Shown here piece after piece: positions 1 through 46,747 of a DNA stretch of 64,000 nucleotides; positions within the stretch are counted from its first letter, which is position 1; every line of letters starts with the position of its first letter. Made by a program: the position numbers and the translations under genes. A model generated the notes under the pieces. That model searched no databases, was not told the DNA's origin, and saw only the letters and a program-made list of their open reading frames with translations. The DNA lies in the sequence record PV730302.1; one strand, written 5' to 3'. Source of the stretch: a phage.

Positions 1-636
1 GAAGAGCAAAAACAAATTTTAGATGAGTTACTGGAAGAATACTTCGGTGGATATCCTATGTCATGGCGCCCGTATATGTTCATTGAACTTTACACATCAT
101 CACTCGGCAAGACCAAAATTCCTATCCGATACACTTGCAGTAAGTGTGAAAAGGATAGACAAGTCTTATTCAATTTGAAACAGGCCAAGTTAGATAACCC
201 TACAATTGAAGTGGCAGGCTTGAAGCTAACATTCAAATTTCCGGAAATAGAATATCACGATAAATCTGAATTGATTTTGAACACCCTCCAAACCGTAGAA
301 GATGAAAATGGAAAATATAATTGGTCAGACCTTTCTGAAGAGGACCAATTAGCCGTAATAGATGCTATAGACTTATCCACTTTAGAGGATATAGTTAAAC
401 AAACTAGCCCTATTCATTTCGAACTCAAATACGGATGCTGTAATCGTAGAACAATTACGTATACCGATATTTTAGAGGTGTTTAAGCTTATAGTCAATCC
501 GGATGAGATATTTTTATTTTACCAAATAAACCATTTATTGGTAAAGAACAATTATTCATTAGAAAGCATTATGCAGATGATTCCAATCGAACGCGGTATT
601 GCTTTGTCTTTGGTTGAAAAGGACCTTAAGAAATGA
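1..636 (+). CDS. 51: baseplate hub assembly protein, gp51-like (5' end outside window)
   Basis: Reading frame is open from nt 1; lies immediately upstream of the gp27-like gene as in T4 order 51-27-28-29-48-54; Cys-containing small protein. Identity by synteny only. Confidence 0.4.
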
Positions 637-1802
637 GTTCAAAAACTATGCAACGTGAAGGCTTTCCTAATATTAGTATACGCCTTTACGAAGATTATGA
701 CGCCTGGTTAGAGCATCGTTTTGTTGAACTAGGCGCGACATTTACTACTCTAACAATGCGAGATGGACTTTACGGTAGTAATGAAGGATTGCTCCAGTTT
801 TATGATGCAAAGAACCTTCATACTAAAATGGACGGCGAACAGATTATTCAAGTTTCCGTTAAGAACGCCAACTCTGAGCGTACCCAATCAAGAATTTATG
901 GAAGTAAGCACTTTGCTGTAGGAGTGGATTCGAAGGGTGATAATATCATAACAATACAACTCGCCCCAATCCACTTTTTAGAAAATCTTAAATTCGGACG
1001 TATGTTCTTCCCAAGTGTTCAAGAAACATTAACCGAAATGATTGGTGTTATTTATCAAGACCGCCCACTTCTTGCACCTCCATTGAACGGGATAAACGTT
1101 TACGTTCCTAATGTTCCTTGGTGTGATTCAATGGACCGTTATATGGAATTTGTACGAGAAGTAGGTATGGCTGTTGAATCTGATAAATTTGTATTTGTCT
1201 GGGAAGATATAGATGGTATTTCTATTATGGACTACGAATTTATGGTTAATCAAGAGCCAATTAATTTTGTGGTAGGTGAGCCGCGTTTAATAGGCCAATA
1301 CGTTCAAGATATGGATACTCCTATCGCATTTGATTTTGAATGGTTAACTAAAGCCAACCAGCATTCCAGAAAGCCATATGAAAACGCTACTATATACGCC
1401 CACTCTTTCTTAGACAAAAACGCCACACGAATTACTTTTGGCGATGGGCAAAACAGTATATTGGTTTCTCGCTCTGGCGGATATTCCGATTATACCTATC
1501 GAAATGGATATGAAGAAGCTGATAGATTAGTTACAATGGCCCAATACGACGGCTACGCGCATTGTAAGGTATACGGTAACTTTGAACTAACTCCAGGTGA
1601 TAAGATTAATTTCTACGACCCTAAAAACCAATTCCAATACGATTTTTATGTAGACGAAGTTATTCATGAAGTGAGTAACAATACATCAATTACAAACCTT
1701 TATATGTTTACTAATGGTAAGCCTATTAAGATTGAAGAACCACCGAAGGTTAAAAATGAACTTAAAACTGATACTCCCGATCAAGAAAATAACGCTGGGT
1801 GA
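633..1802 (+). CDS. 27: baseplate hub subunit gp27
   Basis: 389 aa (T4 gp27 is 391 aa); position in hub cluster; start overlaps upstream stop (ATGA). Confidence 0.65.
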
Positions 1803-2283
1803 TAAAGAGATTTCTATTCCTAAATTGGGTCTTAAACACCAGAAATTGGTTAAAGATGAAAAAGACCCTTACAAGGCTCTTCACATATTAATGAATTCCA
1901 TTTATAAAGATTTATCCGCGGCAGAGACTGATTTTGCCGCTCTTCACCTTTTAGAATTCAATGGAAGATTAAAAAGTAAAGTAACCAAAGACGGGTTTAC
2001 TTATAACTTAAATGACCTTTATATTTGCCAACGACTTGAATTCCAATTCCAAGGTAAAACATTTAAATTTAAATCACATGAACCATTTCAAACATTTGGG
2101 CCTGTTGATAGTGTATTACAGTCCCTTTACCTTGGTGATGATGTACCAGATTTTCTGGATATGCCTGCCTTTGTTGCTACATGGGCCGACGATATAACTT
2201 CTACTATAGCTATCCCTGGTCCTAATGGTCCTATCAAAGGATTGCTTAAAATCATGGATATCTTAAATGAAGAACGAATCTAA
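1756..2283 (+). CDS. 28: baseplate hub distal subunit gp28
   Basis: Track ORF 1714..2283; first ATG at 1756 (MNLKLIL...) gives 175 aa, close to T4 gp28 (177 aa); overlaps 3' end of gene 27. Confidence 0.55.
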
Positions 2284-4003
2284 TCAGAATAGTTTTCGTC
2301 GCAATAAACTGATTGAAGAAATGGCTCCTCAGCGTCGTGCTGAGGCGCTAGCCCAAACTCAGAACGACGAATTAGGAAATATATCAGATGTTTTATCCGA
2401 TTCCCAGGCGGCGTCTGAATTGCTCTCTGAAGTGGTTGAGACAAAGTCTAATCAGATTATTAGTTCTGTAGACCGAGTAGATAAAAGCGTCCAAGATGTT
2501 GTTGCCGGGACAGAATTAACGGCTGAAGCTATATCAGAACAAACTCAACAATCTAAAGCTCTTTCGGATGCACTAAACGAAAAGATTAATAAGCTTTCTA
2601 ATATGTTAGAGGCTAAATTTTCTGGTATTTCTATTCCACCGGAAGGGAGCTCATTAAAGGTTATTGAAGACTCTATTCCGGAAGAACCTAAGGCCGAAAC
2701 TCCTAAAGTTCCTGCTGTTGTTGAAGATATTCTTCCACCTGAAGATAATAAACCTGACGCTGAATTTATGCCTGAGCCTCCTAAAAATTCAGATGAAGGT
2801 AAAGAAGGTGATAAGACTTCTCTTTCCGAGAAAATAGAAGCCCTTACTAAAATAACTGAAAAGGGATTTAAAGCTTCTATAGGCGTCGCTGATAGAATTT
2901 CAGGCATGCTTTTTAAGTATACCATTACCGCTGCCGCTGAAGCTGCTAAACTCGCCGCAGGTTTAGTCCTTTTAATATTTGGTATAGATGCCATTCGTGT
3001 GTACTTCCAATATTTCATGGACCAATTTGAGGCAGGATGGAAAGAATTTAACGATAAGTTTAAAGAGTGGGGACCATTACTTGAAGGGCTAATGACATGG
3101 GCCAAGAATGCTGAAGCCATGTTTAGTGAAGGGAACTGGTTAGGTCTGGCTGAAGCCATTATTCGTGGTATGGTTAATCTTACTAAAAATATGGCCCAGC
3201 TTTTAATGCTCGGTATTTCTAAGTTGATTTCTGCCATTTTAAGCAAAATACCTGGTATGGGTGAGTTAGCTGAAAACGTGGAGGCTTCCGCTTTAATGTC
3301 GTATCAGCAAAATACAGGAGCCACTTTGGATGATGAAGACCAAACTAAAGTAGCCAAGTACCACGATAGACGTTCTGCCGAGGCTTTAGAAACAGCCGAG
3401 AAAATGAATAAGAAGTATAAGGATAAACCCGAGCTTATAAACCAAGCAGAGAAATACGGTAATCTTACTAAAGAACAAGCTGACCAATTACGTGCAGGTG
3501 GAATTGACACAAGCTTCCGTGACCTCCCTGAAGAAGAACGATTAGAGTATTTCAAGAAGCGGGATAAAGCCCAAGCCGATATTATTCGTTTGACTCAAAC
3601 TGCTGATAATATAATGAAGCCTGATTCTAAAGATATCGAAAATGCTAAAGCATTTAAAGCTGATATCGAGAAACAATTGGCCGACCCTATTATGGCTAAA
3701 GGCGGAGCACCGAAGGACCTTAATATCCAGCAATTACTTGATAAGATGAATAAATCTTTAGAGAAATTTAATGAAGCTGAAAAGCCTAAACCTGCTTCTG
3801 TAGCGGAATCTCCTGAAAATACCCAGGTTAAAAAGGTGGATGAGCAAATGAGAGCAAAGGAAAATGCTAAATATAGTCAGCAGGCTCCAACTCAAATAAA
3901 TCAGCAAACGAATATCAAGAAAACGAGTAAGACTAGTTATAATTTACCTCCACAGTCCTCTACTCCTGCTCCTGGTATGCGTCAAGCTACTAAAGTTAAT
4001 TAG
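2267..4003 (+). CDS. 29: baseplate hub / tail length determining protein gp29
   Basis: 578 aa (T4 gp29 590 aa); extended, low-complexity, coiled-coil-like sequence typical of tape-measure-like proteins; synteny. Confidence 0.65.
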   Translation: MKNESNQNSFRRNKLIEEMAPQRRAEALAQTQNDELGNISDVLSDSQAASELLSEVVETKSNQIISSVDRVDKSVQDVVAGTELTAEAISEQTQQSKALSDALNEKINKLSNMLEAKFSGISIPPEGSSLKVIEDSIPEEPKAETPKVPAVVEDILPPEDNKPDAEFMPEPPKNSDEGKEGDKTSLSEKIEALTKITEKGFKASIGVADRISGMLFKYTITAAAEAAKLAAGLVLLIFGIDAIRVYFQYFMDQFEAGWKEFNDKFKEWGPLLEGLMTWAKNAEAMFSEGNWLGLAEAIIRGMVNLTKNMAQLLMLGISKLISAILSKIPGMGELAENVEASALMSYQQNTGATLDDEDQTKVAKYHDRRSAEALETAEKMNKKYKDKPELINQAEKYGNLTKEQADQLRAGGIDTSFRDLPEEERLEYFKKRDKAQADIIRLTQTADNIMKPDSKDIENAKAFKADIEKQLADPIMAKGGAPKDLNIQQLLDKMNKSLEKFNEAEKPKPASVAESPENTQVKKVDEQMRAKENAKYSQQAPTQINQQTNIKKTSKTSYNLPPQSSTPAPGMRQATKVN

Positions 4004-4011
4004 GATTAATA

Positions 4012-5100
4012 ATGAAAGCAAAAGAAATTGACATTAATGTAGCCTCCTTGTTTAAAGGAGGCTCAAAGACCTCCGCCGGCCAGTCTAAAGCTAAACCGGC
4101 CCAAACTACAGTAATGGCCCAATACCCGGCAGAAAGGGTCTCCGGTAATGATACCTCCACAGATATGGTGTTAAGCGATTTATATAAAAACGGCTTACTT
4201 TTTACAGCGTATAATTTTAGCTCTCGTGTATCACCTGATTTGCGTAATGACCGATCAAGTCAAATGTCTAAAAAGTTTTCAAAAGCTGCTAGTAAGCTTA
4301 CCGGCAATACCGGAGGATTCAGCGCGGTTAAAAACTTGTTCAGTAATAACTCTAAGGGAGTTAAATTTGACAACCAAGCTTTGGCGAATATTTTACTCCC
4401 ACGTTCTAAATCTGACGTAGATTCGGTGTCGCATAAATTTAATGATGTCGGTGAATCATTAATTACTAAAGGCGGAGGTACTGCTACAGGTATTTTAAGT
4501 AACGTTGCAAGTACTGCAGTATTTGGTGCGTTGGAATCTGTGACTAATGGCGTAATGGCCGATTCAGGCGAGCAGATATACACCACAGCCCGTAGTATGT
4601 ATGCAGGGCCTGATAACCGTACTAAGGTATTCACTTGGGAAATGACTCCACGAAACGCCCAAGACCTTATCCAGATTATTAAAATATACGAAATCTTTAA
4701 TTACTATTCTTATGGTGAAACCGGCAACTCAGCCTTCGCTGGTGAATTAAAAGAGAAGATTGATACCTGGTATCGTTCTACGTTTAAAAAAGAAGCTATT
4801 GACAAGTTTGACGGTAAGCTATTAGGGGAAAGTATTACAAGCTTCCTTTCTAATGTTATTGTGGTAAGTAATCCGACCATTTGGTATATCCGAAACTTTG
4901 GTGATAGCAGTTCATATGATGGTCGTGAAGATATTTTTGGTCCATGCCAAATCCAGAGTATCCGTTTTGATAAAACTCCGGACGGCCATTTTAACGGATT
5001 GGCTATTGCTCCTAACTTACCATCTACGTTTAGTTTAGAAGTTACTTTCCGTGAAATCATTACTTTGAACCGTGGCTCACTTTATACGGAAGGATTCTAA
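4012..5100 (+). CDS. 48: baseplate tail-tube junction protein gp48
   Basis: 362 aa (T4 gp48 364 aa); synteny after gene 29. Confidence 0.65.
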   Translation: MKAKEIDINVASLFKGGSKTSAGQSKAKPAQTTVMAQYPAERVSGNDTSTDMVLSDLYKNGLLFTAYNFSSRVSPDLRNDRSSQMSKKFSKAASKLTGNTGGFSAVKNLFSNNSKGVKFDNQALANILLPRSKSDVDSVSHKFNDVGESLITKGGGTATGILSNVASTAVFGALESVTNGVMADSGEQIYTTARSMYAGPDNRTKVFTWEMTPRNAQDLIQIIKIYEIFNYYSYGETGNSAFAGELKEKIDTWYRSTFKKEAIDKFDGKLLGESITSFLSNVIVVSNPTIWYIRNFGDSSSYDGREDIFGPCQIQSIRFDKTPDGHFNGLAIAPNLPSTFSLEVTFREIITLNRGSLYTEGF

Positions 5101-6029
5101 TGTATACTTTACAAGAATTTCAGAACCAGGCAATTAATATTGACCTACAGAGGAATAACCTGTTTAGTGTAGTATTTGCAACGGTTCCTTCTTCTAAATC
5201 TCAAGCGCTCCTCGACCAGTTCGGTGGAGCTTTATTTAACAATATCCCATTGAATAGCGATTTGTTTGGTATTACACAAGGAGAGTTGACCCAAGGTGTT
5301 ACGACATTAGTGACAGCGGGCACTCAGAAGTTGATTCGTAAGTCAGGCATAAGTAAATATTTGATTGGAGCTATGTCATCCAGGGTTGTGCAGAGCTTAC
5401 TAGGAGAGTTTGAAGTAGGTACATATCTGATGGATTTTTTCAATATGGCCTATCCTACGGCAGGTCTTTTAGTCCACGCCGTTAAAATCCCGGATAATAC
5501 TTTGAACTATGAAATGGATTTGAACCACAACTCACCTAACATCAAAATTACCGGAAGAGAATATTCTCCATTAGTATTAAGCTTCCGTATGGATTCTGAA
5601 GCTGCTAACTACCGTGCTTTTAATGATTGGGTCAATAGTGTTCAAGACCCTATTACACAATTAAGAGCATTACCGGAGGATGTTGAAGCTGACATTCAAG
5701 TCAACCTTCATTCCCGTAATGGATTACCACATACGGTAGTAATGCTTAATGGTTGCGTTCCAATGAGCGTATCTTCCCCGGAATTATCTTACGACGGTGA
5801 TAACCAAATTGCTTCATTTGATGTTACATTTGCTTATAGAAGTGTACAGACTGGTGCAGTTGGCAAACAAGCTGCTTATGAATGGTTAGAAGATAAAGTC
5901 CTTAAAGGCGTGGCGGGTATAAGTGAGAGCAATTCCCTGAGTTCTTCAGTAGCTAAATTAAGCCGACTTTCAGGAGCTTCTAGTGGATTAACAGGATTGG
6001 TTAATAGTGGAATATCGAGGTTGTTATAA
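5100..6029 (+). CDS. 54: baseplate tail-tube initiator gp54
   Basis: 309 aa (T4 gp54 320 aa); start overlaps gp48 stop; last late gene before the strand switch. Confidence 0.65.
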   Translation: MYTLQEFQNQAINIDLQRNNLFSVVFATVPSSKSQALLDQFGGALFNNIPLNSDLFGITQGELTQGVTTLVTAGTQKLIRKSGISKYLIGAMSSRVVQSLLGEFEVGTYLMDFFNMAYPTAGLLVHAVKIPDNTLNYEMDLNHNSPNIKITGREYSPLVLSFRMDSEAANYRAFNDWVNSVQDPITQLRALPEDVEADIQVNLHSRNGLPHTVVMLNGCVPMSVSSPELSYDGDNQIASFDVTFAYRSVQTGAVGKQAAYEWLEDKVLKGVAGISESNSLSSSVAKLSRLSGASSGLTGLVNSGISRLL

Positions 6030-35545: not shown

Positions 35546-35553
35546 TATAAATA
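35546..35553 (+). promoter_or_regulatory. T4-type late promoter -10 box TATAAATA
   Basis: Exact TATAAATA 32 nt upstream of the gene 34 ATG. Confidence 0.65.
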
Positions 35554-35585: not shown

Positions 35586-38500
35586 ATGGCTGATATTTTA
35601 AAACCTGCATTCCGTGCTACATCCGGACTCGATGCTGCGGGCGAGAAAGTTATCAATGTTGCCAAAGCCGATTACAATGTATTAGATGATGGCGTCAACG
35701 TTGAATTCTTTATAGATGAGAACACCATCCAGGCGTACGACGAGACGCGCGGATATAAGAATGGGTTTGCCGTAATCCATGACCAACGTATCTGGGTTGC
35801 TCAACGCGATATCAATGCTCCTGCAGGAACTTTTACTCCAGGCTATTGGACTGCTACCCGTACTGACCCTAAATGGATTACCGTAGCGTCTCCTACACGC
35901 CAGCTGGCTTCCGGTGAATATATTGCGGTGGATTCCGCTGCTAGCTTTACTACATTTACCCTGCCTCCGAACCCTACTGATGGCGATACCGTTGTAATTA
36001 AAGATATCGGTGGACGTGTTGGGTATAACGAAATAAAGGTCCAATCTAGTTCTGCTCCTGGTGGCGGTAACCAGAAAATTGTTCGTTTTGGTAATCAGTT
36101 TACTGAGACCTTAATTACGAAGCCTTTTTCTTATAACATGCTTATCTTTGCTAACCGTCTTTGGCATTTCTGGGAAGCTGGTAACGAAGAACGCGGTATT
36201 CGTGTAGAACCGAACATGGCCCAGTTCCAATCACAAGCAGGTGATAACGTTCTCCGTCGTTATACTTCAGGTGCAGTGATTAAGTTTACTCTTCCTAAGT
36301 ATGCAAACCAAGGCGATATGATTAAAACCGTTGATATTGATGGTTTAGGAAGTAAATTCCACTTAATCGTTGAAACGTTTGATGCTTCATCTTCATTAGG
36401 TAAGCTTGGTCAGCATAGCATGGAATTCCGTACCTCTGGTGATGGATTCTTTGTTTATAACTCTACCGAAAAATTATGGTATGTTTGGGACGGGGACCGT
36501 CAAACTCGTTTACGAGTAATTCGTGACGATGTTGAGCTCTTGGCTAATGAAAGTGTTATTGTTTTCGGCCCTAATAATACAACACCTCAGACGATTAATA
36601 TCACATTACCTACAGGCGTAGCCCAGGGCGATGTCGTTAAAATCGCATTAAACTATCTTCGTAAAGCTCAGACGGTAAATATTAAGGCCGCTGTAGGAGA
36701 TAAAATAGCTTCTTCAGTTCAATTGCTCCAGTTCCCTAAACGTTCTGAATATCCGCCGGATACCGAATGGGTTCTGAATGATGTATTGACCTTCAATGGT
36801 AACTTAAGTTATACTCCTGTTATTGAACTGAGTTATATCGAAGACACCACTACAGGTGGCAAATATTGGGTTGTTGCTCAGAACGTTCCTACTGTAGAAC
36901 GTGTGGATTCTAAGGATGATTTAACCCGTGCTCGTCTTGGTGTTATTGCTCTGGCGTCACAGACCCAAGCAAACGTTGACCATGAAAATAATCCTGAAAA
37001 AGAACTGGCTATCACCCCACAGACTTTAGCTAATCGTGTAGCGACTGAATCACGTCGTGGTATTGCTCGTATTGCTACAACGGCTCAGGTAAACCAGAAT
37101 ACCGGATTTGCATTCCAGGACGATTTGATTATTTCTCCTAAGAAATTAAACGAACGTACTGCTACCGAAACCCGTCGTGGTGTGGCTGAAATTGCTACGC
37201 AACAGGAAACTGATGCAGGCGTTGATGATACAACCATTATCACTCCTAAGAAGCTACAGACGCGCCAGGGAACTGAAAGCCTGTCAGGTATAGTAAAATA
37301 CGTATCCACCACTGGAACCACTCCTGCGACTTCTAGAGCAACTGTAGGTACTAACGTTTATAATAAGAACACAACTACTTTAGTTATTTCTCCTAAAGCT
37401 TTGGACCAATATAAAGCTAACTATGAGAACCAAGGTGCTGTATATCTTGCTACGCAAGCCGAAGTTAATGCGGGTGCTACTAACCCTGGTTTTAGTAACT
37501 CGGTTGTTACACCTGAAACATTAGGTGCTCGTCGTGCTTCTGATACTAATCACGGTTTAATTGAAATTGCTACGCAAGCAGAGACTGATACTGGAACTGA
37601 TTATACTCGTGCGGTAACGCCTAAGACGTTAAATGACAGGAATGCTACTCAAACACTTACTGGTATTGCTCGTATTGGTACTCAAGTAGAATTTGATGCA
37701 GGTGTATTAGATAATGTTATTTCAACTCCGTTGAAAATTAAAACACGTTTTAATAATACTGCTAGAACTTCTGTCTCAGCAGCCAGTGGTTTGATTGAAT
37801 CAGGAACCTTATGGAACCATTATACACTAGATATCCGTGAAGCAAGTAATACTCAACGTGGTACGGCTCGTTTGGCTACCCAAACTGAAGTTAATACTGG
37901 TACTGATGACAAAACAATCATCACTCCACTTAAGCTTCAAGCTAAAAAGGCTACCGAAAACGCTGAAGGTATTATCCAACTCGCTACTCAGGCTGAAGTT
38001 ATTGCTGGTACGGTAAGTAATAAAGCGTTTAGTCCTAAGCATTACAAATATATCGTCCAACAGGAAAAATCCTGGGAAGCTACTTCTGCTCGTAGAGGAT
38101 ATGTTAAATTAACCACAGGTACAGCCACTTGGGAAGGTGATGATACTAATGGTTCTGTTGCTAACCTGGCTAAATTTGAAGATAATGGCTTTGCTATTTC
38201 CCCTCTTCAAATGAATACGGCATTAACTCACTATCTTCCGATTAAAGGTAAGGCTTTTGACTCTGATAAATTGGACGGATTTGATTCTGCTCAGTTTATT
38301 CGTCGTGATATAGCACAAGATATTAATGCTAATATGACATTCAAACAACCTGTTAGAATTGAAAGTACTTTAGCGGTTACCGGTGCGGTTAATTTGAGTG
38401 GCTCTGTTATTTCAAATAATACTACATTAACCGGTTCTACTACAGTCAATAGCAATTCTACTGTAGGCGCTTTGAATTACATTGAGTTCACTTCACTTTC

Positions 38501-39461
38501 GCAAGGCTCGGGTACTTGGACCTCTCAACATGATAGCAATGTTAAAGCTCCTGTATTTTTAAATATAACTACTCTAGCTGGCGCATCTAGATACGTTCCT
38601 TTAATTAAGCAACGTTATAAAGATGGAACATTTACCTTTGGTACATTGACAAATGAACCTACTTCAAATGATGAAGGTGCTTTTGTTATTCATTATATAG
38701 ATGCGGTAAAAACCCAGCGTAAATGGACCTTTAGACGGAATGGTGATTTAGAAATAACTGCAGGTAATTTCGTTCTTGGTAATGGGTCTGCTGTAATTAA
38801 TGGTGGTCTTAATGTTACTAAAGCTTCTGGTATTACAACCACTGGGCTAGTTGCCAATAGTGAATCCAGATTCGAAGGTGCTGTTACTATTAACAACTTC
38901 CTTACGGTAAGCAACAAAGCTACACTTAACAACGGCTTAGCTGTTCAGAAATATGCAAGGGTTACAGGAGATAAGACTTCTGACATCTATAGCAGAAAAC
39001 CTACAATGGATAATGTTGGTTTTTGGTCTATAGACATCAACGATTCAGCTACTTATAACCAGTTCCCAGGTTATTTTAAAATGGTTGAAAAGACCAACGA
39101 AGTAACCGGACTGCCGTATCTGGTCCGCGGTGAAGAAGTTAAATCTCCTGGTACGTTAACTCAGTTCGGTAACACTCTGAATTCGCTTTACCAAGATTGG
39201 ATTACCTATCCAAATACTGCAGACGGAAGCACCACTCGTTGGACTCGTACTTGGCAGCAAAATAAAAATGCTTGGTCTGGATTTGTTCAGGTATTTGATG
39301 GCGGTAACCCACCACAACCATCTGATATCGGTGCTTTGCCTTCAGACAACGCTTCAATGAGTAACTTGACCATTCGTGATTGGTTAAGAATCGGTAACGT
39401 ACGCGTTGTTCCGGACCCGGTAACTCGTTCTGTTAAATTCGAATGGATTGATACACCATAA
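35586..39461 (+). CDS. 34: long tail fibre proximal subunit gp34
   Basis: 1291 aa (T4 gp34 1289 aa); repetitive beta-rich sequence; heads the 34-35-36-37 cluster. Confidence 0.85.
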   Translation: MADILKPAFRATSGLDAAGEKVINVAKADYNVLDDGVNVEFFIDENTIQAYDETRGYKNGFAVIHDQRIWVAQRDINAPAGTFTPGYWTATRTDPKWITVASPTRQLASGEYIAVDSAASFTTFTLPPNPTDGDTVVIKDIGGRVGYNEIKVQSSSAPGGGNQKIVRFGNQFTETLITKPFSYNMLIFANRLWHFWEAGNEERGIRVEPNMAQFQSQAGDNVLRRYTSGAVIKFTLPKYANQGDMIKTVDIDGLGSKFHLIVETFDASSSLGKLGQHSMEFRTSGDGFFVYNSTEKLWYVWDGDRQTRLRVIRDDVELLANESVIVFGPNNTTPQTINITLPTGVAQGDVVKIALNYLRKAQTVNIKAAVGDKIASSVQLLQFPKRSEYPPDTEWVLNDVLTFNGNLSYTPVIELSYIEDTTTGGKYWVVAQNVPTVERVDSKDDLTRARLGVIALASQTQANVDHENNPEKELAITPQTLANRVATESRRGIARIATTAQVNQNTGFAFQDDLIISPKKLNERTATETRRGVAEIATQQETDAGVDDTTIITPKKLQTRQGTESLSGIVKYVSTTGTTPATSRATVGTNVYNKNTTTLVISPKALDQYKANYENQGAVYLATQAEVNAGATNPGFSNSVVTPETLGARRASDTNHGLIEIATQAETDTGTDYTRAVTPKTLNDRNATQTLTGIARIGTQVEFDAGVLDNVISTPLKIKTRFNNTARTSVSAASGLIESGTLWNHYTLDIREASNTQRGTARLATQTEVNTGTDDKTIITPLKLQAKKATENAEGIIQLATQAEVIAGTVSNKAFSPKHYKYIVQQEKSWEATSARRGYVKLTTGTATWEGDDTNGSVANLAKFEDNGFAISPLQMNTALTHYLPIKGKAFDSDKLDGFDSAQFIRRDIAQDINANMTFKQPVRIESTLAVTGAVNLSGSVISNNTTLTGSTTVNSNSTVGALNYIEFTSLSQGSGTWTSQHDSNVKAPVFLNITTLAGASRYVPLIKQRYKDGTFTFGTLTNEPTSNDEGAFVIHYIDAVKTQRKWTFRRNGDLEITAGNFVLGNGSAVINGGLNVTKASGITTTGLVANSESRFEGAVTINNFLTVSNKATLNNGLAVQKYARVTGDKTSDIYSRKPTMDNVGFWSIDINDSATYNQFPGYFKMVEKTNEVTGLPYLVRGEEVKSPGTLTQFGNTLNSLYQDWITYPNTADGSTTRWTRTWQQNKNAWSGFVQVFDGGNPPQPSDIGALPSDNASMSNLTIRDWLRIGNVRVVPDPVTRSVKFEWIDTP

Positions 39462-39469
39462 GAGGTAAT

Positions 39470-40594
39470 ATGGAAAGATTTATGGCTGAATTTGGACAAG
39501 ACTACGTTCAAATTCCTGTACTATCTGAAAATAATGCCGTTAGTTATAAACTTAGTATAGCAGGGAGCTGTACTAAGTCCACTAAAAAGGCTTATATCAA
39601 ATTTCAAGATGAGGACTTCGGTCCTCAGAATTTCCAATCCGGGTTAAATTTGGTTGAAATAGACCCAACAAATAACACAATAGTAACTACAAAATCATAC
39701 GCATTTACCAAAGACCATGATGTTATTTCCCAAGCGTTTATAACTTATATTTCATCTATACCCGCCGGTAGAATTGTTTGCTTTATTTCTTCTGGTAAAT
39801 TAAACGCCTCGCAAGTATTAATTGATTGGTTTAGGGCTTCCGGTTCTACGGCGTTCCCCGATAAGTGGCTCATCGATAAAGTGGATACTTCTTATTCAGC
39901 TTTTTATGTTTCAGGAAGAAATGCTATAGTAATGGAACACGTGCTTTATAACGACGGCGTTTTGGTAGAAGACGTTTCCACCCCATTAGAAGTCGTTTAT
40001 GACAACTTTAATGATGTAGGAGGAACTGGGTTCCCTGTTAGAGTCATTGAAGATGAAAACACTTATTATAGCGGAGCTACTCAAGAAATTAAAAGGTTTC
40101 CTACCGAATCCGCCATAACTCCTTGTGCCGGTTATAATATGGTTCCTGGAGATTTCTTTTATCTCAAATTCCAAATGACCTATGACCAGGCTTTAAAAGA
40201 TTTAGGGACGACCCAGATGTCTGTACGATTTTTTAATGGCCAGGAAATGCTTCAATCCACTGATATCAATATTCCTGTAGGAGCGGGCTCTCCACCGGCA
40301 GGCGCATGGATGTCTTTTGAGCGCGTAATAGAAGTTCCGCCGAATGCCAATGGTTTTACATTATATTGTAGAAAAACTGTCTCAGGCGGAGTAGGAGGTG
40401 TTAGGAATGTTATGTTTGGCGAAATAGCTAGACCTGAAGATACCCCTAAATCCGCTGAAATTGGTGTTAATGGTATTCGTATGAGCTACGGTACTGAAAC
40501 CCGTTCAATGGGTAATGTTATTGCACAATTGAATGACAAATCATCTGGTAATGCAGGTAAGGTGTTTGTTCAAGAGTTTAAAGAAAAATATTAA
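39470..40594 (+). CDS. 35: long tail fibre hinge protein gp35
   Basis: 374 aa (T4 gp35 372 aa); synteny. Confidence 0.7.
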   Translation: MERFMAEFGQDYVQIPVLSENNAVSYKLSIAGSCTKSTKKAYIKFQDEDFGPQNFQSGLNLVEIDPTNNTIVTTKSYAFTKDHDVISQAFITYISSIPAGRIVCFISSGKLNASQVLIDWFRASGSTAFPDKWLIDKVDTSYSAFYVSGRNAIVMEHVLYNDGVLVEDVSTPLEVVYDNFNDVGGTGFPVRVIEDENTYYSGATQEIKRFPTESAITPCAGYNMVPGDFFYLKFQMTYDQALKDLGTTQMSVRFFNGQEMLQSTDINIPVGAGSPPAGAWMSFERVIEVPPNANGFTLYCRKTVSGGVGGVRNVMFGEIARPEDTPKSAEIGVNGIRMSYGTETRSMGNVIAQLNDKSSGNAGKVFVQEFKEKY

Positions 40595-40617: not shown

Positions 40618-40625
40618 TATAAATA
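40618..40625 (+). promoter_or_regulatory. T4-type late promoter -10 box TATAAATA
   Basis: Exact TATAAATA 25 nt upstream of the gene 36 ATG, directly after the terminator. Confidence 0.65.
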
Positions 40626-40650: not shown

Positions 40651-41298
40651 ATGGCTGATTTAAAATTAGGCTCAACCGCTGGAGGTTCCGTTATATGGCA
40701 CCAAGGCAATTTTCCGCTGACGCCGGTATCAAATGATATTTTATATAAGACCTACAAAATCTATACTGAATTTAATAAGCCTCAAGCCGCAGATAACGAC
40801 TTTGTTTCTAAAGCCGCCGGAGGCACATATAAAGGTACTGTTAATTTTGAAAAAGGTATAACTTTTAATGATTCCGCTGGGTATGCTATTAAATTGGGTG
40901 CCAGAGAAGGTGGACAACCTTTTACCGCTTCATTTAAGATTAAAGGGGCTTTTGGCCTTGAAACTGAAACAGGAACTCCGTTTGTAATCTTTAACCCTAC
41001 CACTACAGTAGGAGCTAACCGACTTACTGTAATGGGCGATATCCTGGGTCGACATATTAAAGATGAATCTGGAAGAGTGTTTTCTCCAGGGAATGCTCCG
41101 ACAAAAGCACAAGTTGGATTAAGCGATGTAGATAACGCAAAACAGGTCCAAATAAATAATAGTAACATACAATCTATGGCTGGTGTTCTTTCAGCCCCGA
41201 ATTTCATATCTAGGAACCCAGGTACATTGAACGAACACGTTCCTCGTATCGACCAGGTTGTTCTTAGAGGTACATCTGAAGATTTTGGATATTATTAA
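40651..41298 (+). CDS. 36: long tail fibre distal connector gp36
   Basis: 215 aa (T4 gp36 221 aa); synteny. Confidence 0.7.
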
Positions 41299-41306
41299 GA
41301 GGCATT

Positions 41307-44300
41307 ATGGCTACTTTAAAATCGATACAATTTAAAAGAAGTAAAACACCAGGAGCCAAGCCTACTGCAGCTCAGTTAGATGAAGGCGAACTGGCTATTA
41401 ACTTGCGTGACCGCACTATTTTTACTAAGTCAGACCAGGGACAGATTATCGATTTGGGCTTTGCAAAAGGCGGACAAGTTGATGGCGATGTTAATATTAA
41501 CGGGACCCTGAATTTAAATGGTCCTGAAATTGTTGCCTCCGGTGGTTATATAGAATTTAACTATCGTACGACAGGTAGTGGCTCTTGGGCAGGTCAGCAC
41601 AATGCCAAAGCTCCTATTTTTGCTGATTTAAGTGCGGCTGCATCTACTTCAGAATACAACCCACTGATTAAACAACGCTTTAAAGATGGAACATTTTCAG
41701 CAGGTACACTAGTAAGCGAAGGCAGTTTTAAATTCCATTATATTAATGAAGCCGGTGATTCGAAATATTGGACCTTTAATCGTAATGGTAATTTTCAAGT
41801 TGATACTGGTGGCTTGACAGTTACAGGCGGTAGTATTTCCACTTCAGGAAACGTAGCTGCTTCCGGCTTTTTATCAGCACCACAGGTTAATAGTAAAAAT
41901 ATTATTCTTGATTCGAAAAATTTCGGACAGTATGACATCCAATCTTTAGTTAACTATGCTTACCCTGGAACAGGCGAAGAAAATGGTATAAACTATCTTC
42001 GTAAAGTTCGAGCTAAATTGGGTGGAACTATTTACCACGAAATTGCTTCTGCACAAACCGGTAAGAATGATGAAATTTCTTGGTGGACTGGGAATACTAT
42101 TAATACTAAGTTGATGGGGCTTCGCAATGATGGGGCTATGGTATTACGTCGTTCACTTGCTATTGGCACAATTACTACCGATGAAAATACTAACAACTAC
42201 GGTTCTCCTACTCCAATGGGGGAAAGATATATTGCTCTAGGCGACCCTGCCACCGGTTTAAAATATATTAAGCAAGGTGTTTACGATTTAGTAGGTAATT
42301 GGAATTCCGTTGCTTCTATTACTCCTGATAGCTTCCGTAGTACTCGTAAAGGTTTATTTGGTCGTTCAGAAGACCAAGGCGGAACATGGATTATGCCTGG
42401 AACCAATGCGGCCTTTTTATCAGCTCAAACTCAGGCTGACGGGAACCACGCTGGCGATGGTCAGACGCATATTGGTTATAACTCCGGTGGAAAAATGTCG
42501 CACTATTTCCGCGGTAGAGGTCAAACCAATATTAACACCCAAGAAGGCATGGAACTTAACCCGGGTATTCTTAAACTGGTAACCGGTGCAAATAATGTGC
42601 AGTTTTATGCTGATGGGACTATTTCTTCTATTCAACCTATTAAATTGGATAATGAGATATTTTTAAATAAATCCAATAATACTGCAGGTCTTAAATTTGG
42701 CGCCCCTAGCGGAGTTAATGAAACAAGAGCTATCCAGTGGAACGGTGGTACTCGTGAAGGACAGAATAAAAACTATGTGATTGTTAAAGCATGGGGTAAC
42801 TCATTTAATGCCGCCGGTGATAAATCTCGCGAAACGGTTTTCCAAGTATCAGATAGTCAAGGATATTATTTTTATGCCCATCGTAAAGCTCCAACCGGCG
42901 ACGAAACTATTGGACGTATTGAAGCTCAGTTTGCTGGAGCTCTTAATGCTAAAAGTATTAATGCCATCGAAAATTTTAAAGTTAATGGATTAAGCACTTT
43001 AGTCGGCGGAGTTACAATGAGCAATGGGCTTAATTTAACTGGTGGCGCCACTTTTAACGGTCAAGTTAAAATGGGTGGTACCGCTGACACATTAAGAATT
43101 TGGAATGCCGAATATGGTATGATTTTCCGACGTTCGGAATCCGGTTCTTCTGCTTCATTCCATCTTATTCCTACCCTCCAGAATGCCGGCGAAAACGGTG
43201 GAATAAGTGACCTTCGCCCGCTTTCCATTAATTTGGCCAATGGCACGGTTATAATGGGTAATAAAAGTGCTGGGTATGGTCCACTTTTTACAGTAGACAA
43301 CGTAAGTAAATTTGTCCAGACCGACTGTAGACTGCGTGTTAATATGGATTCCGACGCCATTGTGGTAAATGCTTCTTCTCAGGCGTCATCTAACTTTATC
43401 CAAGGACGTAAAGCCGATGTTACAAAATGGTATCTCGGTATTGGCGACGGTGGTAACGTTGTTCGTTTACATAACTATACTTATTCGCATGGTATTGCAT
43501 TAAACTCTGATACTGTTGATATAACCAAGGCACTTAAAATTGGTTCCGATGTTCGTATTGGTCCTGACGGTAATATTACAGGCAGCACTGCATTAGATAA
43601 CTTTAAAAACCTGAACACAACGTTAGACCGTAAAGTTAACACAGGCGGCTGGTCTGGCGGCGCTACTACAGGTTGGTATAAATTTGCTACTGTAGAAATT
43701 CCACAATCGACAGGTACAGCATCCTTTAAAATATCAGGCGGGTCTGGATTTAGTTTTAAAAGTTATGGTCAGGCTTCAATAGCCGAAATAGTCCTTAGAA
43801 CCGGCAATAATAACCCTAAAGGCCTTAATGCTACGCTGTGGAATAGAACTTCTGAAGCTATTTCTCAGATTGCTTCTGTTAATACAAGCGAAGATATCTA
43901 TGATATTTACGTTTACTTAGGTGGGTATTCTAATTCTTTGGTAGTAGAATATACATGCAGTAGCAATAGTAAAGTAACCGTAGTGGGTATTAATAGCGGT
44001 GTCCAGCCTTTGGTAGAAACATTACCTGAAGGTCATGTTGTAGGTAAATCTGTAAGAATGCTGAACAATATTGACGGAATGTTCGCTGCCGGCGAATCGG
44101 ATATTGTTACACGTGGTGAATACGTTACCAATAACCAAAAAGGTATGCGTATCAAATCCAGCGGTAATGATATAGGTTCTAATGCCGCTTTGATTAGAAA
44201 CGACGGTGGAAGTTTTTATATTTTAGTTACAGATAAAAACACGGCAGAAAACCCGAATGCAACTGACGGGTTGTGGAATGGCTTAAGACCTTTCACTATC

Positions 44301-45236
44301 AACATGGCTGACGGTCGTGTTGGTATGAACCATGGGTTAAATATTACTGGTGGTGGTCTGAACGTGGCGGGTGGCCTTAATGTCACCAGTGGTAATACTA
44401 GTTTAGGCAATATCTCGTCTCGTGTGGTTTCATACGCTAGCGCCGGCGCTGTTTGGACTGATGCCGCGGATGCAATGAAATCTAAAATCACCTTTATGGC
44501 AGACCATGGCGATTTATCTAATTCAGGTGGTTATTATCCTATTGTCGGTGCATGGAGTAACTATGGTTCAGCGGGTTATCGTCAAACCTTTGAATTTGGA
44601 TGGGTCGGCACTGGTACCACAGTTGGTTGGCGCGATGGCATTATTCGTATTCGCGGAGATAACGCTAGTGGCCAACAAGCAAGATGGCGCTTTACAATGG
44701 ACGGCCTTTTAGATTGCCCTGGTAAAGTACAGATGCCACAAACAAGTGCCTTTGGTGTTAATACAACTAACTCACTCGGTGGAAGTAGTATAACATTTGG
44801 CGATAGTGATACCGGTATTAAGCAAAACGGTGATGGATTATTAGACATATATGCGAACAATATACAAGTATTCCGTTTCCAAAATGGTGATTTGTACTCG
44901 TATAAAAATATAAATGCTCCTAACGTTTATATTCGTTCTGATATTCGTTTGAAATCAAACTTCAGGCCTATTGAAAATGCTCTTGAAAAGGTTGAACAGC
45001 TCGATGGTTTAATCTATGATAAAGCAGAGTATATTGGTGGTGAAGCGGTTCAAACTGAAGCAGGTGTTATTGCTCAGAAACTTAAAGAAGTATTACCTGA
45101 AGCTGTGCATGAATCTAAAGATTCACAGGAAAATACAGTTCTGGGTGTTTCGACACAGGCACAAGTTGCTCTGTTAATTGAAGCGGTTAAAACCCTGTCG
45201 GCTAAAGTTAGAGAACTTGAAGCTAAATTAAATTAA
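41307..45236 (+). CDS. 37: long tail fibre distal subunit gp37 with C-terminal intramolecular-chaperone-like domain
   Basis: 1309 aa; C-terminal ...[32 protein letters not shown]...[15 protein letters not shown] resembles auto-cleaving intramolecular chaperone (S74-like) domains; longer than T4 gp37 (1026 aa), as in T2-type fibres. Confidence 0.8.
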
Positions 45237-45240
45237 GAAA

Positions 45241-45256
45241 AGGGCCTTCGGGCCCT
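45241..45256 (+). other. intercistronic RNA hairpin AGGGCC-UUCG-GGCCCU
   Basis: Between the gene 37 stop and the gene 38 RBS; no U tract, so more likely a stabilising or processing hairpin than a terminator. Confidence 0.4.
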
Positions 45257-45267
45257 AAGGATTTATT

Positions 45268-46056
45268 ATGGCAATCGTAGGATTACCTGGTTGGGTCGGC
45301 CAATCTGCAGTTGATGAAACTGGCCAGCGATGGATGGATGCAGCGATGCGAGATGTTCGTGTAGCTGTTCCAGGTTGGATGGGTTCGATGGCTAACCAAT
45401 CAAAAGAAATTTACTTATCTATAGGGGCCAATCATAACTATGATAGGAATACCCTTATAAACTGGATGAGAGCACAAGGTGGAGCGCCTGTGGTTATTAC
45501 AATCACTGGTGACTTAGTATCTAACAGCAGAGGAAACCCGTGTCTGGAATTCCCTAGCAACTTACCTAATGCATATATTCAACTTACTATTAATAGTGGT
45601 GTAACTGTTTATGGGCGAGGAGGTAATGGTTCTACTAATGGTTCTGCAGGCCAAGCAGGTGGTACAGCAATCCATAACGCTGCTGGAACCAAATTGCGTA
45701 TTCGAAACAATGGTGCTATCGCTGGCGGTGGCGGCGGTGGCGGTGCTGTATCGTTACAGAACAGCTATCCGACTAACGGTACCTGTGGCGGCGGTGGTGG
45801 TAGACCATTCGGCGTCGGTGGGAAAATAGGGTCTGATGCCATATTGTCCGGTGCAAACGCATCTCTAACTGCCGCTGGCTCAGGTGGTACCACGGTCCAA
45901 TACGGCGCAGGTAACGGCGGTAATGTTGGTGCTGGCGGTGGACGAGGATGGGGCAAAAACGTTTATACCTCTGCAGGCGGTTCAGCTGGTGCAGCCGTTA
46001 CAGGCAATGCTCCTTCTTGGCAGAACGTAGGAACCATCTACGGAAGCCGTGTGTAA
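45268..46056 (+). CDS. 38: receptor-recognising adhesin gp38 (T2-type, glycine-rich motifs)
   Basis: 262 aa; conserved N-terminus MAIVGLPGW.G.SAVDETGQRWM; C-terminal half made of poly-Gly motifs (GGGGGGG, GGGGGRPFGVGG, GAGNGGNVGAGGGRG) separating short variable segments. Confidence 0.8.
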   Translation: MAIVGLPGWVGQSAVDETGQRWMDAAMRDVRVAVPGWMGSMANQSKEIYLSIGANHNYDRNTLINWMRAQGGAPVVITITGDLVSNSRGNPCLEFPSNLPNAYIQLTINSGVTVYGRGGNGSTNGSAGQAGGTAIHNAAGTKLRIRNNGAIAGGGGGGGAVSLQNSYPTNGTCGGGGGRPFGVGGKIGSDAILSGANASLTAAGSGGTTVQYGAGNGGNVGAGGGRGWGKNVYTSAGGSAGAAVTGNAPSWQNVGTIYGSRV

Positions 46057-46067
46057 TACTTCTGTAT

Positions 46068-46075
46068 TATAAATA
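46068..46075 (+). promoter_or_regulatory. T4-type late promoter -10 box TATAAATA
   Basis: Exact TATAAATA 18 nt upstream of the holin ATG (RBS AAAGGAGAAA). Confidence 0.6.
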
Positions 46076-46093: not shown

Positions 46094-46747
46094 ATGGAAC
46101 CAAAAGTAGGATTTTCATTATCAGACCTACTTTTTGGACTTCTTGATAGAATTTTTAAAGATACTTCTTCCGGGAAAGTAGTTTTTTCCCGGGTCCTAGT
46201 CGTGATATTATTGTTCTTTATGGCACTGGTTTGGTATAAAGGCGAGTATATTCTAAACTTTTACAAAGAGACAACTTATGCCTCTTATACTGAAATGATT
46301 AGACAAGACCAGGACAATAGATTTAAAATTGCGGCTATCGAGCAGCTCCGAATAGTGCATTCTTCTTCAGGCGCGGACTTCACAGCAATATATTCTTTTA
46401 GGCCGACAAACATGAATTATTTTGTGGATATGGTGGCCTACGAGGGTAAATTACCGGAAACGGTAGACGCAAAAAATACGGGAGGGTTTCCAATTGACAA
46501 AACGTCAGTAGAATATATGGCTGGAGTTAACGGGAACTATTTTGAATCAAGTACTGAATCAGTGTTTCTCCCTACAAAGAAGAAAACACAATTCACGTAT
46601 ATGTTTTCATGCCCGTTTTTTAATTTGGATAACGTCTACGCCGGCTCGATATCGTTGTACTGGTATGATATCAAACCGGATTTAGGATTTCCTAGACTTT
46701 CGTCTATGTGTGGTCAAGCCGGGAGGACATTAGGTCGAACACGTTAG
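46094..46747 (+). CDS. t: holin T
   Basis: 217 aa (T4 T 218 aa); DRLFKD, SRV.VVILLF.MA.VWY TMD, IVH.SS.ADF.A.YSFRP.N.NYFVD..AYEGKLP, C-terminal Q.A.R.LGR match T4 holin as recalled. Confidence 0.9.
   Translation: MEPKVGFSLSDLLFGLLDRIFKDTSSGKVVFSRVLVVILLFFMALVWYKGEYILNFYKETTYASYTEMIRQDQDNRFKIAAIEQLRIVHSSSGADFTAIYSFRPTNMNYFVDMVAYEGKLPETVDAKNTGGFPIDKTSVEYMAGVNGNYFESSTESVFLPTKKKTQFTYMFSCPFFNLDNVYAGSISLYWYDIKPDLGFPRLSSMCGQAGRTLGRTR

Follow-up and report, generated by a model that had tools for sequence, protein, structure and literature searches.

The 3' end of gene 37 and the whole of gene 38 in PV730302.1 very probably make up a long-tail-fibre tip module of the T2 type, in which gp37 would carry a self-removing chaperone and gp38 would be the cap that picks the receptor, most probably FadL and/or OmpF. 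Direct observations in the 64,000 nt of phage DNA that were analysed (the window) are the gene order, the identities of the domains, catalytic and docking positions that are conserved among relatives, the gp38 fold and a set of variable segments (HVSs) that is that of T2. The data contain nothing that contradicts the proposed architecture, and the receptor is its weak point.

On the plus strand of the window lie the long-tail-fibre genes of a T-even phage, in the order g34-g35-g36-g37-g38-t (Table 1). Exactly as given in the preliminary description, the adhesin module starts at 44937, the first base of the TCT codon for Ser1211 of gp37, and ends at 46056, the last base of the g38 stop codon, with 31 nt between g37 and g38. 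Over its first 25 kb, the window shares 92–95% DNA identity with fDHCT2, AnYang, JS10 and IME08, while its tail-fibre module is closest to those of fDHCT2, IME341 and IME08. Since IME08, JS10, IME341 and AnYang are Dhakavirus by classification, these DNA identities assign the phage to the Tevenvirinae as a Dhakavirus-like member. No tRNA genes or Rfam families were found within the window.

Table 1. Features of the long-tail-fibre locus; positions are those of the window, residues those of the encoded protein.
Feature	Position	Residues	Strand	Basis
g34	35586-39461		+	ORF; Pfam/PHROGs
g35	39470-40594		+	ORF; Pfam/PHROGs
g36	40651-41298		+	ORF; Pfam/PHROGs
g37, long tail fibre distal subunit precursor (139.8 kDa)	41307-45236	1309 aa	+	ORF; PHROG 1699; Pfam
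Predicted mature gp37 C-terminal tip	44907-44936	1201-1210	+	Identity among relatives; S16 alignment
gp37 intramolecular chaperone/autocleavage domain (99 aa, 10.8 kDa) and stop	44937-45236	1211-1309	+	Peptidase_S74
Putative catalytic Ser	44937-44939	1211	+	SDIRLK motif
Putative catalytic Lys	44952-44954	1216	+	SDIRLK motif
GC-rich hairpin, UUCG loop (GGGCC-TTCG-GGCCC)	45242-45255		+	MFE fold
g38, glycine-rich adhesin	45268-46056	262 aa	+	ORF; Pfam/PHROG
gp38 N-terminal attachment domain (Trp9, Trp22, Trp37)	45268-45402	1-45	+	Pfam Gp38_N
gp38 middle segment, beta-strand-rich link from attachment to specificity domain	45403-45606	46-113	+	AF2; Pfam GP38
gp38 C-terminal specificity domain and stop	45607-46056	114-262	+	Gly columns; fold
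gp38 GRM1-5		114-121, 131-159, 174-185, 215-224, 238-246		Invariant Gly columns
gp38 HVS1-4		122-130, 160-173, 186-214, 225-237		Between Gly motifs
gp38 conserved end		247-262		
T4-type late promoter box TATAAATA	46068-46075		+	26 nt upstream of holin gene t
Holin gene t	46094-46747		+	Pfam Phage_holin_T, 4e-66

The gp37 precursor matched PHROG 1699 over its full length (4e-294) and gave Pfam matches to gp37_trimer, Gp34_trimer and Peptidase_S74, and the gene is annotated as gp37 in the records of IME08, IME341 and T2. A sliding comparison with relatives revealed the shaft to be a patchwork, with 88–91% identity to T2 at 41950-42400, about 81% identity to Tequatrovirus and Mosigvirus gp37 genes across 41450-42750, and a stretch from 43000 to 44900 that resembles IME08, IME341 and fDHCT2. 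Dhakavirus and Gaprivervirus phages share the tip, the chaperone domain and gp38 as a single block, to which T2 is less close. The patchwork fits the modular shuffling that has long been known at the long-tail-fibre locus (PMC3157838).

The preliminary description had read the SDIRLK segment near the end of gp37 as part of a chaperone domain of the self-cleaving type. All of the motifs it quoted are present, and Peptidase_S74 (PF13884, 'chaperone of endosialidase') aligns over all 58 positions of its profile with aa 1211-1268, at an E-value of 1.8e-15 and 57.4 bits (curated cutoff, 22 bits). The final 209 residues found chain A of the S16 structure 6F45 (7.7e-12) and the ICA domain of MyRF (7DC3), and a profile made from six gp37 tails reached 7DC3 at 2.4e-9 and a further tail fibre of a phage, 8JOV, at 2.8e-6, with GA-1 gp12 (3GUD) as a weak match (E 0.07); the NCBIfam profiles gave no match for either gp38 or the gp37 tail. 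The S, D, R and K of the SDxRxK motif are invariant in the window, T2, JS10, AnYang, VR20 and S16, and the putative catalytic residues Ser1211 and Lys1216 are spaced i/i+5. Dyads of the same spacing occur in endoNF (S911/K916) and MyRF (S587/K592), in which mutation of these residues to Ala prevents cleavage, and the S74/ICA chaperone family requires a terminal trimeric coiled coil (PMC8326128, PMC3742443). A putative heptad helix at about aa 1287-1308 of gp37 has hydrophobic residues at 1287/1290-91/1294/1297/1301/1304/1308, and this 3-4-3-4 spacing over the last ~22 residues is consistent with a predicted terminal trimeric coiled coil. The domain lies after the fibre shaft as the last 99 aa of the protein; its profile match, dyad and C-terminal position identify aa 1211-1309, at the level of sequence, as an S74 intramolecular chaperone/autocleavage domain. 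Such domains fold as an interdigitated trimer, and a monomer prediction would misrepresent the fold.

Cleavage is predicted at R1210^S1211, before the serine, because S16 gp37 is cut at DLNVS^SDRRIKK (PMC7917993), MyRF is cut at P586^S587, the serine being that of the dyad S587/K592 (PMC8326128), and the crystallised released domain of GA-1 gp12 (3GUD) starts at the serine aligned with Ser1211. The preliminary description had placed the cut after the Ser of SDIRLK, and that detail is not borne out by the three homologues, all of which indicate a cut before it. The predicted products are a mature gp37 of 1210 aa (129.0 kDa) and a released domain of 99 aa (10.8 kDa). N-terminal sequencing of mature gp37, put forward earlier as a check on the cleavage, would be blind to a cut at the C-terminal end, and the informative species would be the fragment that begins with SDIRLK. 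As the predicted new C-terminus is an arginine, tryptic mass spectrometry would be ambiguous for this cut. The domain could also be thought of as a non-catalytic relic that is kept on the mature fibre, but this is very improbable given that Ser1211, Asp1212, Arg1214 and Lys1216 are invariant, that conservation between S16 and T2 extends over the entire domain, and that the gp38 docking surface of S16 is described as exposed only after cleavage (PMC7917993).

The ten residues predicted to end mature gp37 are identical in T2, SV76, fDHCT2, IME08, IME341, VR20, dhabil, dhaeg and CJ20, with one conservative change in AnYang, and the identity holds even where the adjoining upstream shaft sequence is completely different. 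They align with the residues of S16 just before its published cleavage site. Their conservation fits the proposed role as a docking surface for gp38, and it also fits the 'lock-and-key' pairing between gp37 tip subtypes and gp38 N-terminal subtypes of Trojet et al. (PMC3157838). In the window, a gp37 tip of the T2 subtype is paired with a gp38 N-terminus of the T2 subtype (36/45 residues identical to T2).

For gp38, the profile, sequence, structure and synteny tests agree on a protein of the T2/S16 type rather than the T4 type, as the preliminary description had maintained. Gp38_N (PF21721) matches aa 1-42 (5.7e-16, 58.7 bits against a cutoff of 25), GP38 (PF05268) matches aa 47-262 (6e-82, 275 bits), and PHROG 2056 ('tail fiber protein; host specificity') was matched at 3e-99. 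The three Pfam matches of the module (Peptidase_S74, Gp38_N and GP38) all exceed their curated cutoffs, and such scores lie well outside what chance would give. The protein also matches the solved S16 gp38 (6F45_D, 1.9e-45) and 9V85 (8.3e-45), identified here as the receptor-binding domain of PP01 gp38, over nearly the full length of both. An AF2 model, for which the alignment input was 56 diverse homologues, has a pLDDT of 90.1 and a pTM of 0.85, with the strands of the middle segment at pLDDT 95–98. Structure prediction had been named beforehand as a check, and in the PDB the model matches only 6F45_D (TM 0.82/0.86) and 9V85 (TM 0.77/0.91), the next match having E > 3. Trp9, Trp22 and Trp37 align with tryptophans of S16 gp38, W9 and W22 being at least 90% conserved among the 56 homologues; conserved gp38 Trp 'prongs' of this kind are described as inserting into the gp37 tip (PMC7917993).

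The same evidence bears on a T4-type arrangement, in which gp38 would serve assembly as a chaperone without becoming part of the virion, and receptor binding would fall to the gp37 tip. Homologues in the JS10, T6 and JSE records do bear the name 'distal long tail fiber assembly catalyst', which was inherited from T4 nomenclature. However, gp38 matches GP38, Gp38_N and the solved S16 and PP01 adhesins over its full length, gp37 ends in a predicted removable S74 domain and has no receptor-binding extension, and no relationship is said to exist between T4 gp38 and the adhesin of T2/T6 (PMC3157838). The T4-type gp38/Tfa family is absent among the Pfam and PHROG matches of gp38. A chaperone-only gp38 was rejected on the lack of any Pfam or PHROG match to the T4 gp38/lambda Tfa family and on the S74 ending of gp37, and we regard the T4-type arrangement as having next to no probability.

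In the specificity domain, glycine makes up 34% of aa 114-246, and the glycine runs coincide with columns that are invariant across the 56 homologues. The boundaries of the glycine motifs (GRMs) and HVSs in Table 1 are our own, set from these invariant columns and from published residue placements: residue 190 of T2 lies in HVS3 (PMC12529663), and the differences between SV76 and T2 fall in HVS2 and HVS3 (PMC3157838). Across eleven ungapped T2-type sequences, variation is found at 19 of the 65 HVS positions and at 7 of the 68 GRM positions (Fisher p = 0.008). An attachment N-terminus followed by poly-glycine motifs and variable segments had been proposed from inspection of the sequence, and the Gp38_N and GP38 matches, the invariant Gly columns and the enrichment of variation in the HVSs all uphold it. 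By sequence and model, gp38 is thus identified as a T2/S16-type adhesin, with an attachment domain and a polyglycine-helix sandwich of GRMs and HVSs.

Two non-coding elements flank g38. A GC-rich hairpin sits between the g37 stop codon and the g38 ribosome-binding site (AAGGA), and its stem is kept with a different sequence in T2, VR20 and dhabil (GAGGGC-TTCG-GCCCTC) and also in JS10. The T2 record X04442 labels the hairpin a potential terminator. It was rejected here as an intrinsic terminator for the plus strand, since it has no U-run and the terminator scan scores it on the minus strand only; its folding z-score (-1.3) is unremarkable. The end of the module is marked by the late promoter box TATAAATA. 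This motif is not enriched in the window (5 observed vs 6.9 expected), and it is only the placement of the three plus-strand copies, before late genes, that is suggestive.

The subtype of the adhesin was assessed by comparison with relatives. At the protein level, gp38 is identical by 98.9% to that of fDHCT2, 98.1% to IME341, 96.2% to AnYang, 94.3% to IME08, 93.5% to VR20, 92.7% to both dhabil and CLB_P2, 90.5% to dhaeg and 89.3% to T2, and all of these proteins are 262 aa long and align without indels. Identity is about 50% to JS10, S16 and PP01, and 41–46% to T6 and M1. Four of the five GRMs are identical to those of T2, GRM5 having the single substitution S239A, and HVS1 to HVS4 share 6/9, 11/14, 24/29 and 12/13 residues with T2, a total of 53/65 (82%) without indels. 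Against T6 (Tsx), M1, S16 and PP01 the figures are 0–3/14 for HVS2 and 1–3/13–14 for HVS4; for T6, M1 and S16, HVS2 shares 0–2/14 and HVS3 5–9/29. The comparison of variable segments with adhesins of known specificity, which the preliminary description had seen as a way to predict the receptor, therefore places gp38 by sequence in the T2 set.

Because the HVSs are those of the T2 set (53/65 identical), the predicted receptor is, by analogy, most probably FadL and/or OmpF. T2 uses FadL and OmpF as receptors (PMC3157838; PMC12529663), and complementation experiments in the BASEL study bore out its dependence on fadL (PMC8594841). For SV76, two residues from T2, the reported requirement is nevertheless for OmpF, FhuA and LPS in place of FadL (PMC3157838). 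The two sites at which SV76 and T2 differ are 161 and 207 in our alignment; residue 161 is V in the window, A in T2 and T in SV76, and residue 207 is G in the window, as in T2. There are eleven further HVS substitutions relative to T2, including A202 (D in T2) and V210 (F in T2), and D190 is as in T2. A literature search found no receptor experiments on phages with this Dhakavirus adhesin variant, CLB_P2 included. The prediction is a soft one because of the SV76 precedent, the 12 HVS differences, among them residue 161, and the lack of a matching receptor study.

A doubtful but conceivable alternative retains the architecture and changes the receptor: the 12 HVS substitutions would redirect or broaden binding (e.g., to OmpF plus FhuA/LPS, or to another porin), and FadL would not be used. 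In keeping with this, V161 occupies one of the two positions at which SV76 departs from T2 (PMC3157838), a single D190G change alters the behaviour of T2 toward a receptor-blocking protein (PMC12529663), and the isolation hosts of relatives with this allele are varied, O157 and the EAEC strain 55989 among them. Yet the HVSs retain 82% identity to T2 without indels, D190 and G207 are as in T2, and adhesins with common HVS sets usually have common receptors (Trojet et al., PMC3157838). It is likewise possible, if tentative, that the Dhakavirus variant (V161, A202, V210, Q129/A130 and others) differs from T2 in its receptor profile, either by the loss of FadL or by the gain of a second receptor. 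If this were true, natural alleles at 89–99% identity would provide a fine map of the HVS residues that switch receptors.

For the T2-type tip, with FadL and/or OmpF as the receptors favoured here, the following sequence of events would apply. The gp37 chain would be made as a 1309-residue precursor, of which the last 99 residues, the Peptidase_S74 chaperone, would nucleate tip trimerisation or set its register. When this trimer had folded, the Ser1211/Lys1216 dyad would cut R1210-S1211 and the 10.8-kDa domain would leave. One gp38 per gp37 trimer would then cap the exposed gp37 tip, docking via its Trp-bearing N-terminal domain, and its C-terminal polyglycine-helix sandwich of five GRMs would present the four HVSs distally, where they would contact a protein of the outer membrane, FadL and/or OmpF, as for T2, being the likeliest. 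Homologues are the source for the cleavage and where it falls, for the 3:1 stoichiometry, for a virion location of gp38 and for the receptor. The predicted autoproteolytic release has its basis in S16 (PMC7917993), MyRF (PMC8326128) and T2/T6 (PMC3157838). The 6F45 entry contains three gp37 chains and one gp38 chain, which is why one adhesin per fibre is proposed. In T2, T6 and S16, gp38 is known to sit on the virion at the tip of the fibre, and in the Dhakavirus LHE83 anti-gp38 antibody blocks adsorption (LHE83 paper).

The module is already known at the sequence level, being 98–99% identical to genes in public phage records, a number of which carry the annotation adhesin, and the processing of gp37, the capping by gp38 and the glycine-motif/HVS design have already been described for T2, T6 and S16. 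Its value lies in annotation and host-range prediction: the phage would be treated as one with a gp38 adhesin, not a T4-type gp37 tip, and FadL and OmpF would be the first candidate receptors. Some of the deposited relatives are under- or mis-annotated ('hypothetical protein', 'assembly catalyst'). The fDHCT2 record calls both genes hypothetical, and an adhesin label is given to nearly identical modules in IME341, AnYang, IME08, VR20 and dhabil. The module opens no new biological question.

Among known systems, T2 (LC348380, X04442) has the gene order 36-37-38-t in common with the window, together with an identical gp37 tip and cleavage motif (…|SDIRLKSNF) and the intergenic hairpin. It differs by 28 substitutions in gp38 (including 9 in the attachment domain, 12 in the HVSs and 1 in GRM5), by a gp37 shaft that is mosaic and 32 aa shorter in the window, and by its backbone, which is Tequatrovirus in T2 and Dhakavirus in the window. 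The Dhakavirus/Gaprivervirus phages fDHCT2, IME341, AnYang, IME08, VR20, dhabil, CLB_P2 and dhaeg are closer, with gp38 proteins 90.5–98.9% identical, the same flanks and holin and few gp38 substitutions, and all four variable segments of fDHCT2 and IME341 are identical to those of the window; the gp37 shafts of this group (1288–1324 aa) are recombined differently. LHE83, the subject of the sole Dhakavirus receptor paper found, has a different gp38 allele and uses OmpA; its gp38 is set apart by description, as diverging from that of Bp7 in the C-terminal region.

S16 (6F45) likewise has a two-protein tip, an S74 domain with SDxRxK, three N-terminal Trp residues and a polyglycine domain, whereas its gp38 is 48% identical overall and its HVSs are essentially unrelated (HVS2 0/14, HVS4 1/13). 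Marti et al. are said to have named OmpC of Salmonella as the S16 receptor in 2013. The gp38 of PP01 (9V85), a phage whose host is E. coli O157:H7 (PMC9603124), has a similar fold (TM 0.77/0.91, rmsd 1.9 Å, 50% identity) and keeps the glycine motifs, but differs in its variable segments (HVS2 3/14, HVS4 1/13). More distantly, the S74/ICA domains of endoNF, GA-1 gp12 and MyRF resemble the gp37 domain in their i/i+5 Ser-Lys dyad, their position at the fibre C-terminus and their terminal coiled coil, with MyRF and GA-1 gp12 being far removed in sequence (profile matches at 2.4e-9 and 0.07, respectively); the L-shaped tail fibre of T5 has also been named as a member of the S74/ICA family (PMC8326128). 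In endoNF, GA-1 and MyRF the exposed end is itself functional, whereas the predicted exposed end of gp37 here would be the docking site for a separate adhesin.

The shaft of gp37, the distal subunit of the long tail fibre, is a patchwork made by recombination (window 41450-44900). For some of its segments the nearest relative is T2 (88–91%), others come closest, at about 81%, to Tequatrovirus/Mosigvirus phages (W143 and ATK47 among them), and further segments are nearest to the Dhakavirus phages IME08 and IME341 (95–97%). No single deposited gp37 was found to span this shaft at high identity, the best being that of fDHCT2, with 87% coverage and 90.5% identity. In the adjacent glycine-rich adhesin gp38, the variable segment HVS2 is the sole low-confidence part of the structural model (mean pLDDT of 60 for residues 161–170), and residue 161 within it is one of the two positions that separate SV76 from T2.

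Features of the long-tail-fibre gene region (window coordinates)
Feature	Position	Strand	Location
TATAAATA, T4 late-promoter box	35546-35553	+	5' of g34 start codon
TATAAATA, T4 late-promoter box	40618-40625	+	5' of g36 start codon
TATAAATA, T4 late-promoter box	46068-46075	+	5' of t start codon
GC-rich hairpin, UUCG loop	45242-45255	+	between g37 stop and g38 ribosome-binding site
gp38 HVS2	45745-45786		aa 160-173

The three plus-strand copies of the late-promoter box lie 26–40 nt upstream of their start codons, and the motif is not enriched across the whole window (5 observed versus 6.9 expected). The hairpin between g37 and g38 keeps its stem, though not the stem's sequence, in other phages: GGGGC/GCCCC in JS10, and GAGGGC/GCCCTC in T2, VR20 and dhabil. 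The T2 record X04442 annotates this hairpin as a potential terminator. Since no U-run follows the window's hairpin on the plus strand, its function may instead lie in RNA stability or RNA processing.

Within the hinge protein gp35 (39470-40594), amino acids 57–128 match the Pfam family ILEI at 35.5 bits (E = 1.5e-8), exceeding its curated cutoff of 27 bits; the family comprises interleukin-like EMT inducer/FAM3-type domains, a surprising name to meet in the hinge of a phage fibre.

Public records annotate the gp37/gp38 module inconsistently. Both proteins are labelled 'hypothetical protein' in fDHCT2 (L002, its retrieved sequence, 1062-5789), and the gp38 entries of JS10 (L004, 4983-5756), JSE and T6 (P0112) carry the T4-derived name 'distal long tail fiber assembly catalyst', which is unsuited to a gp38 of the adhesin type.
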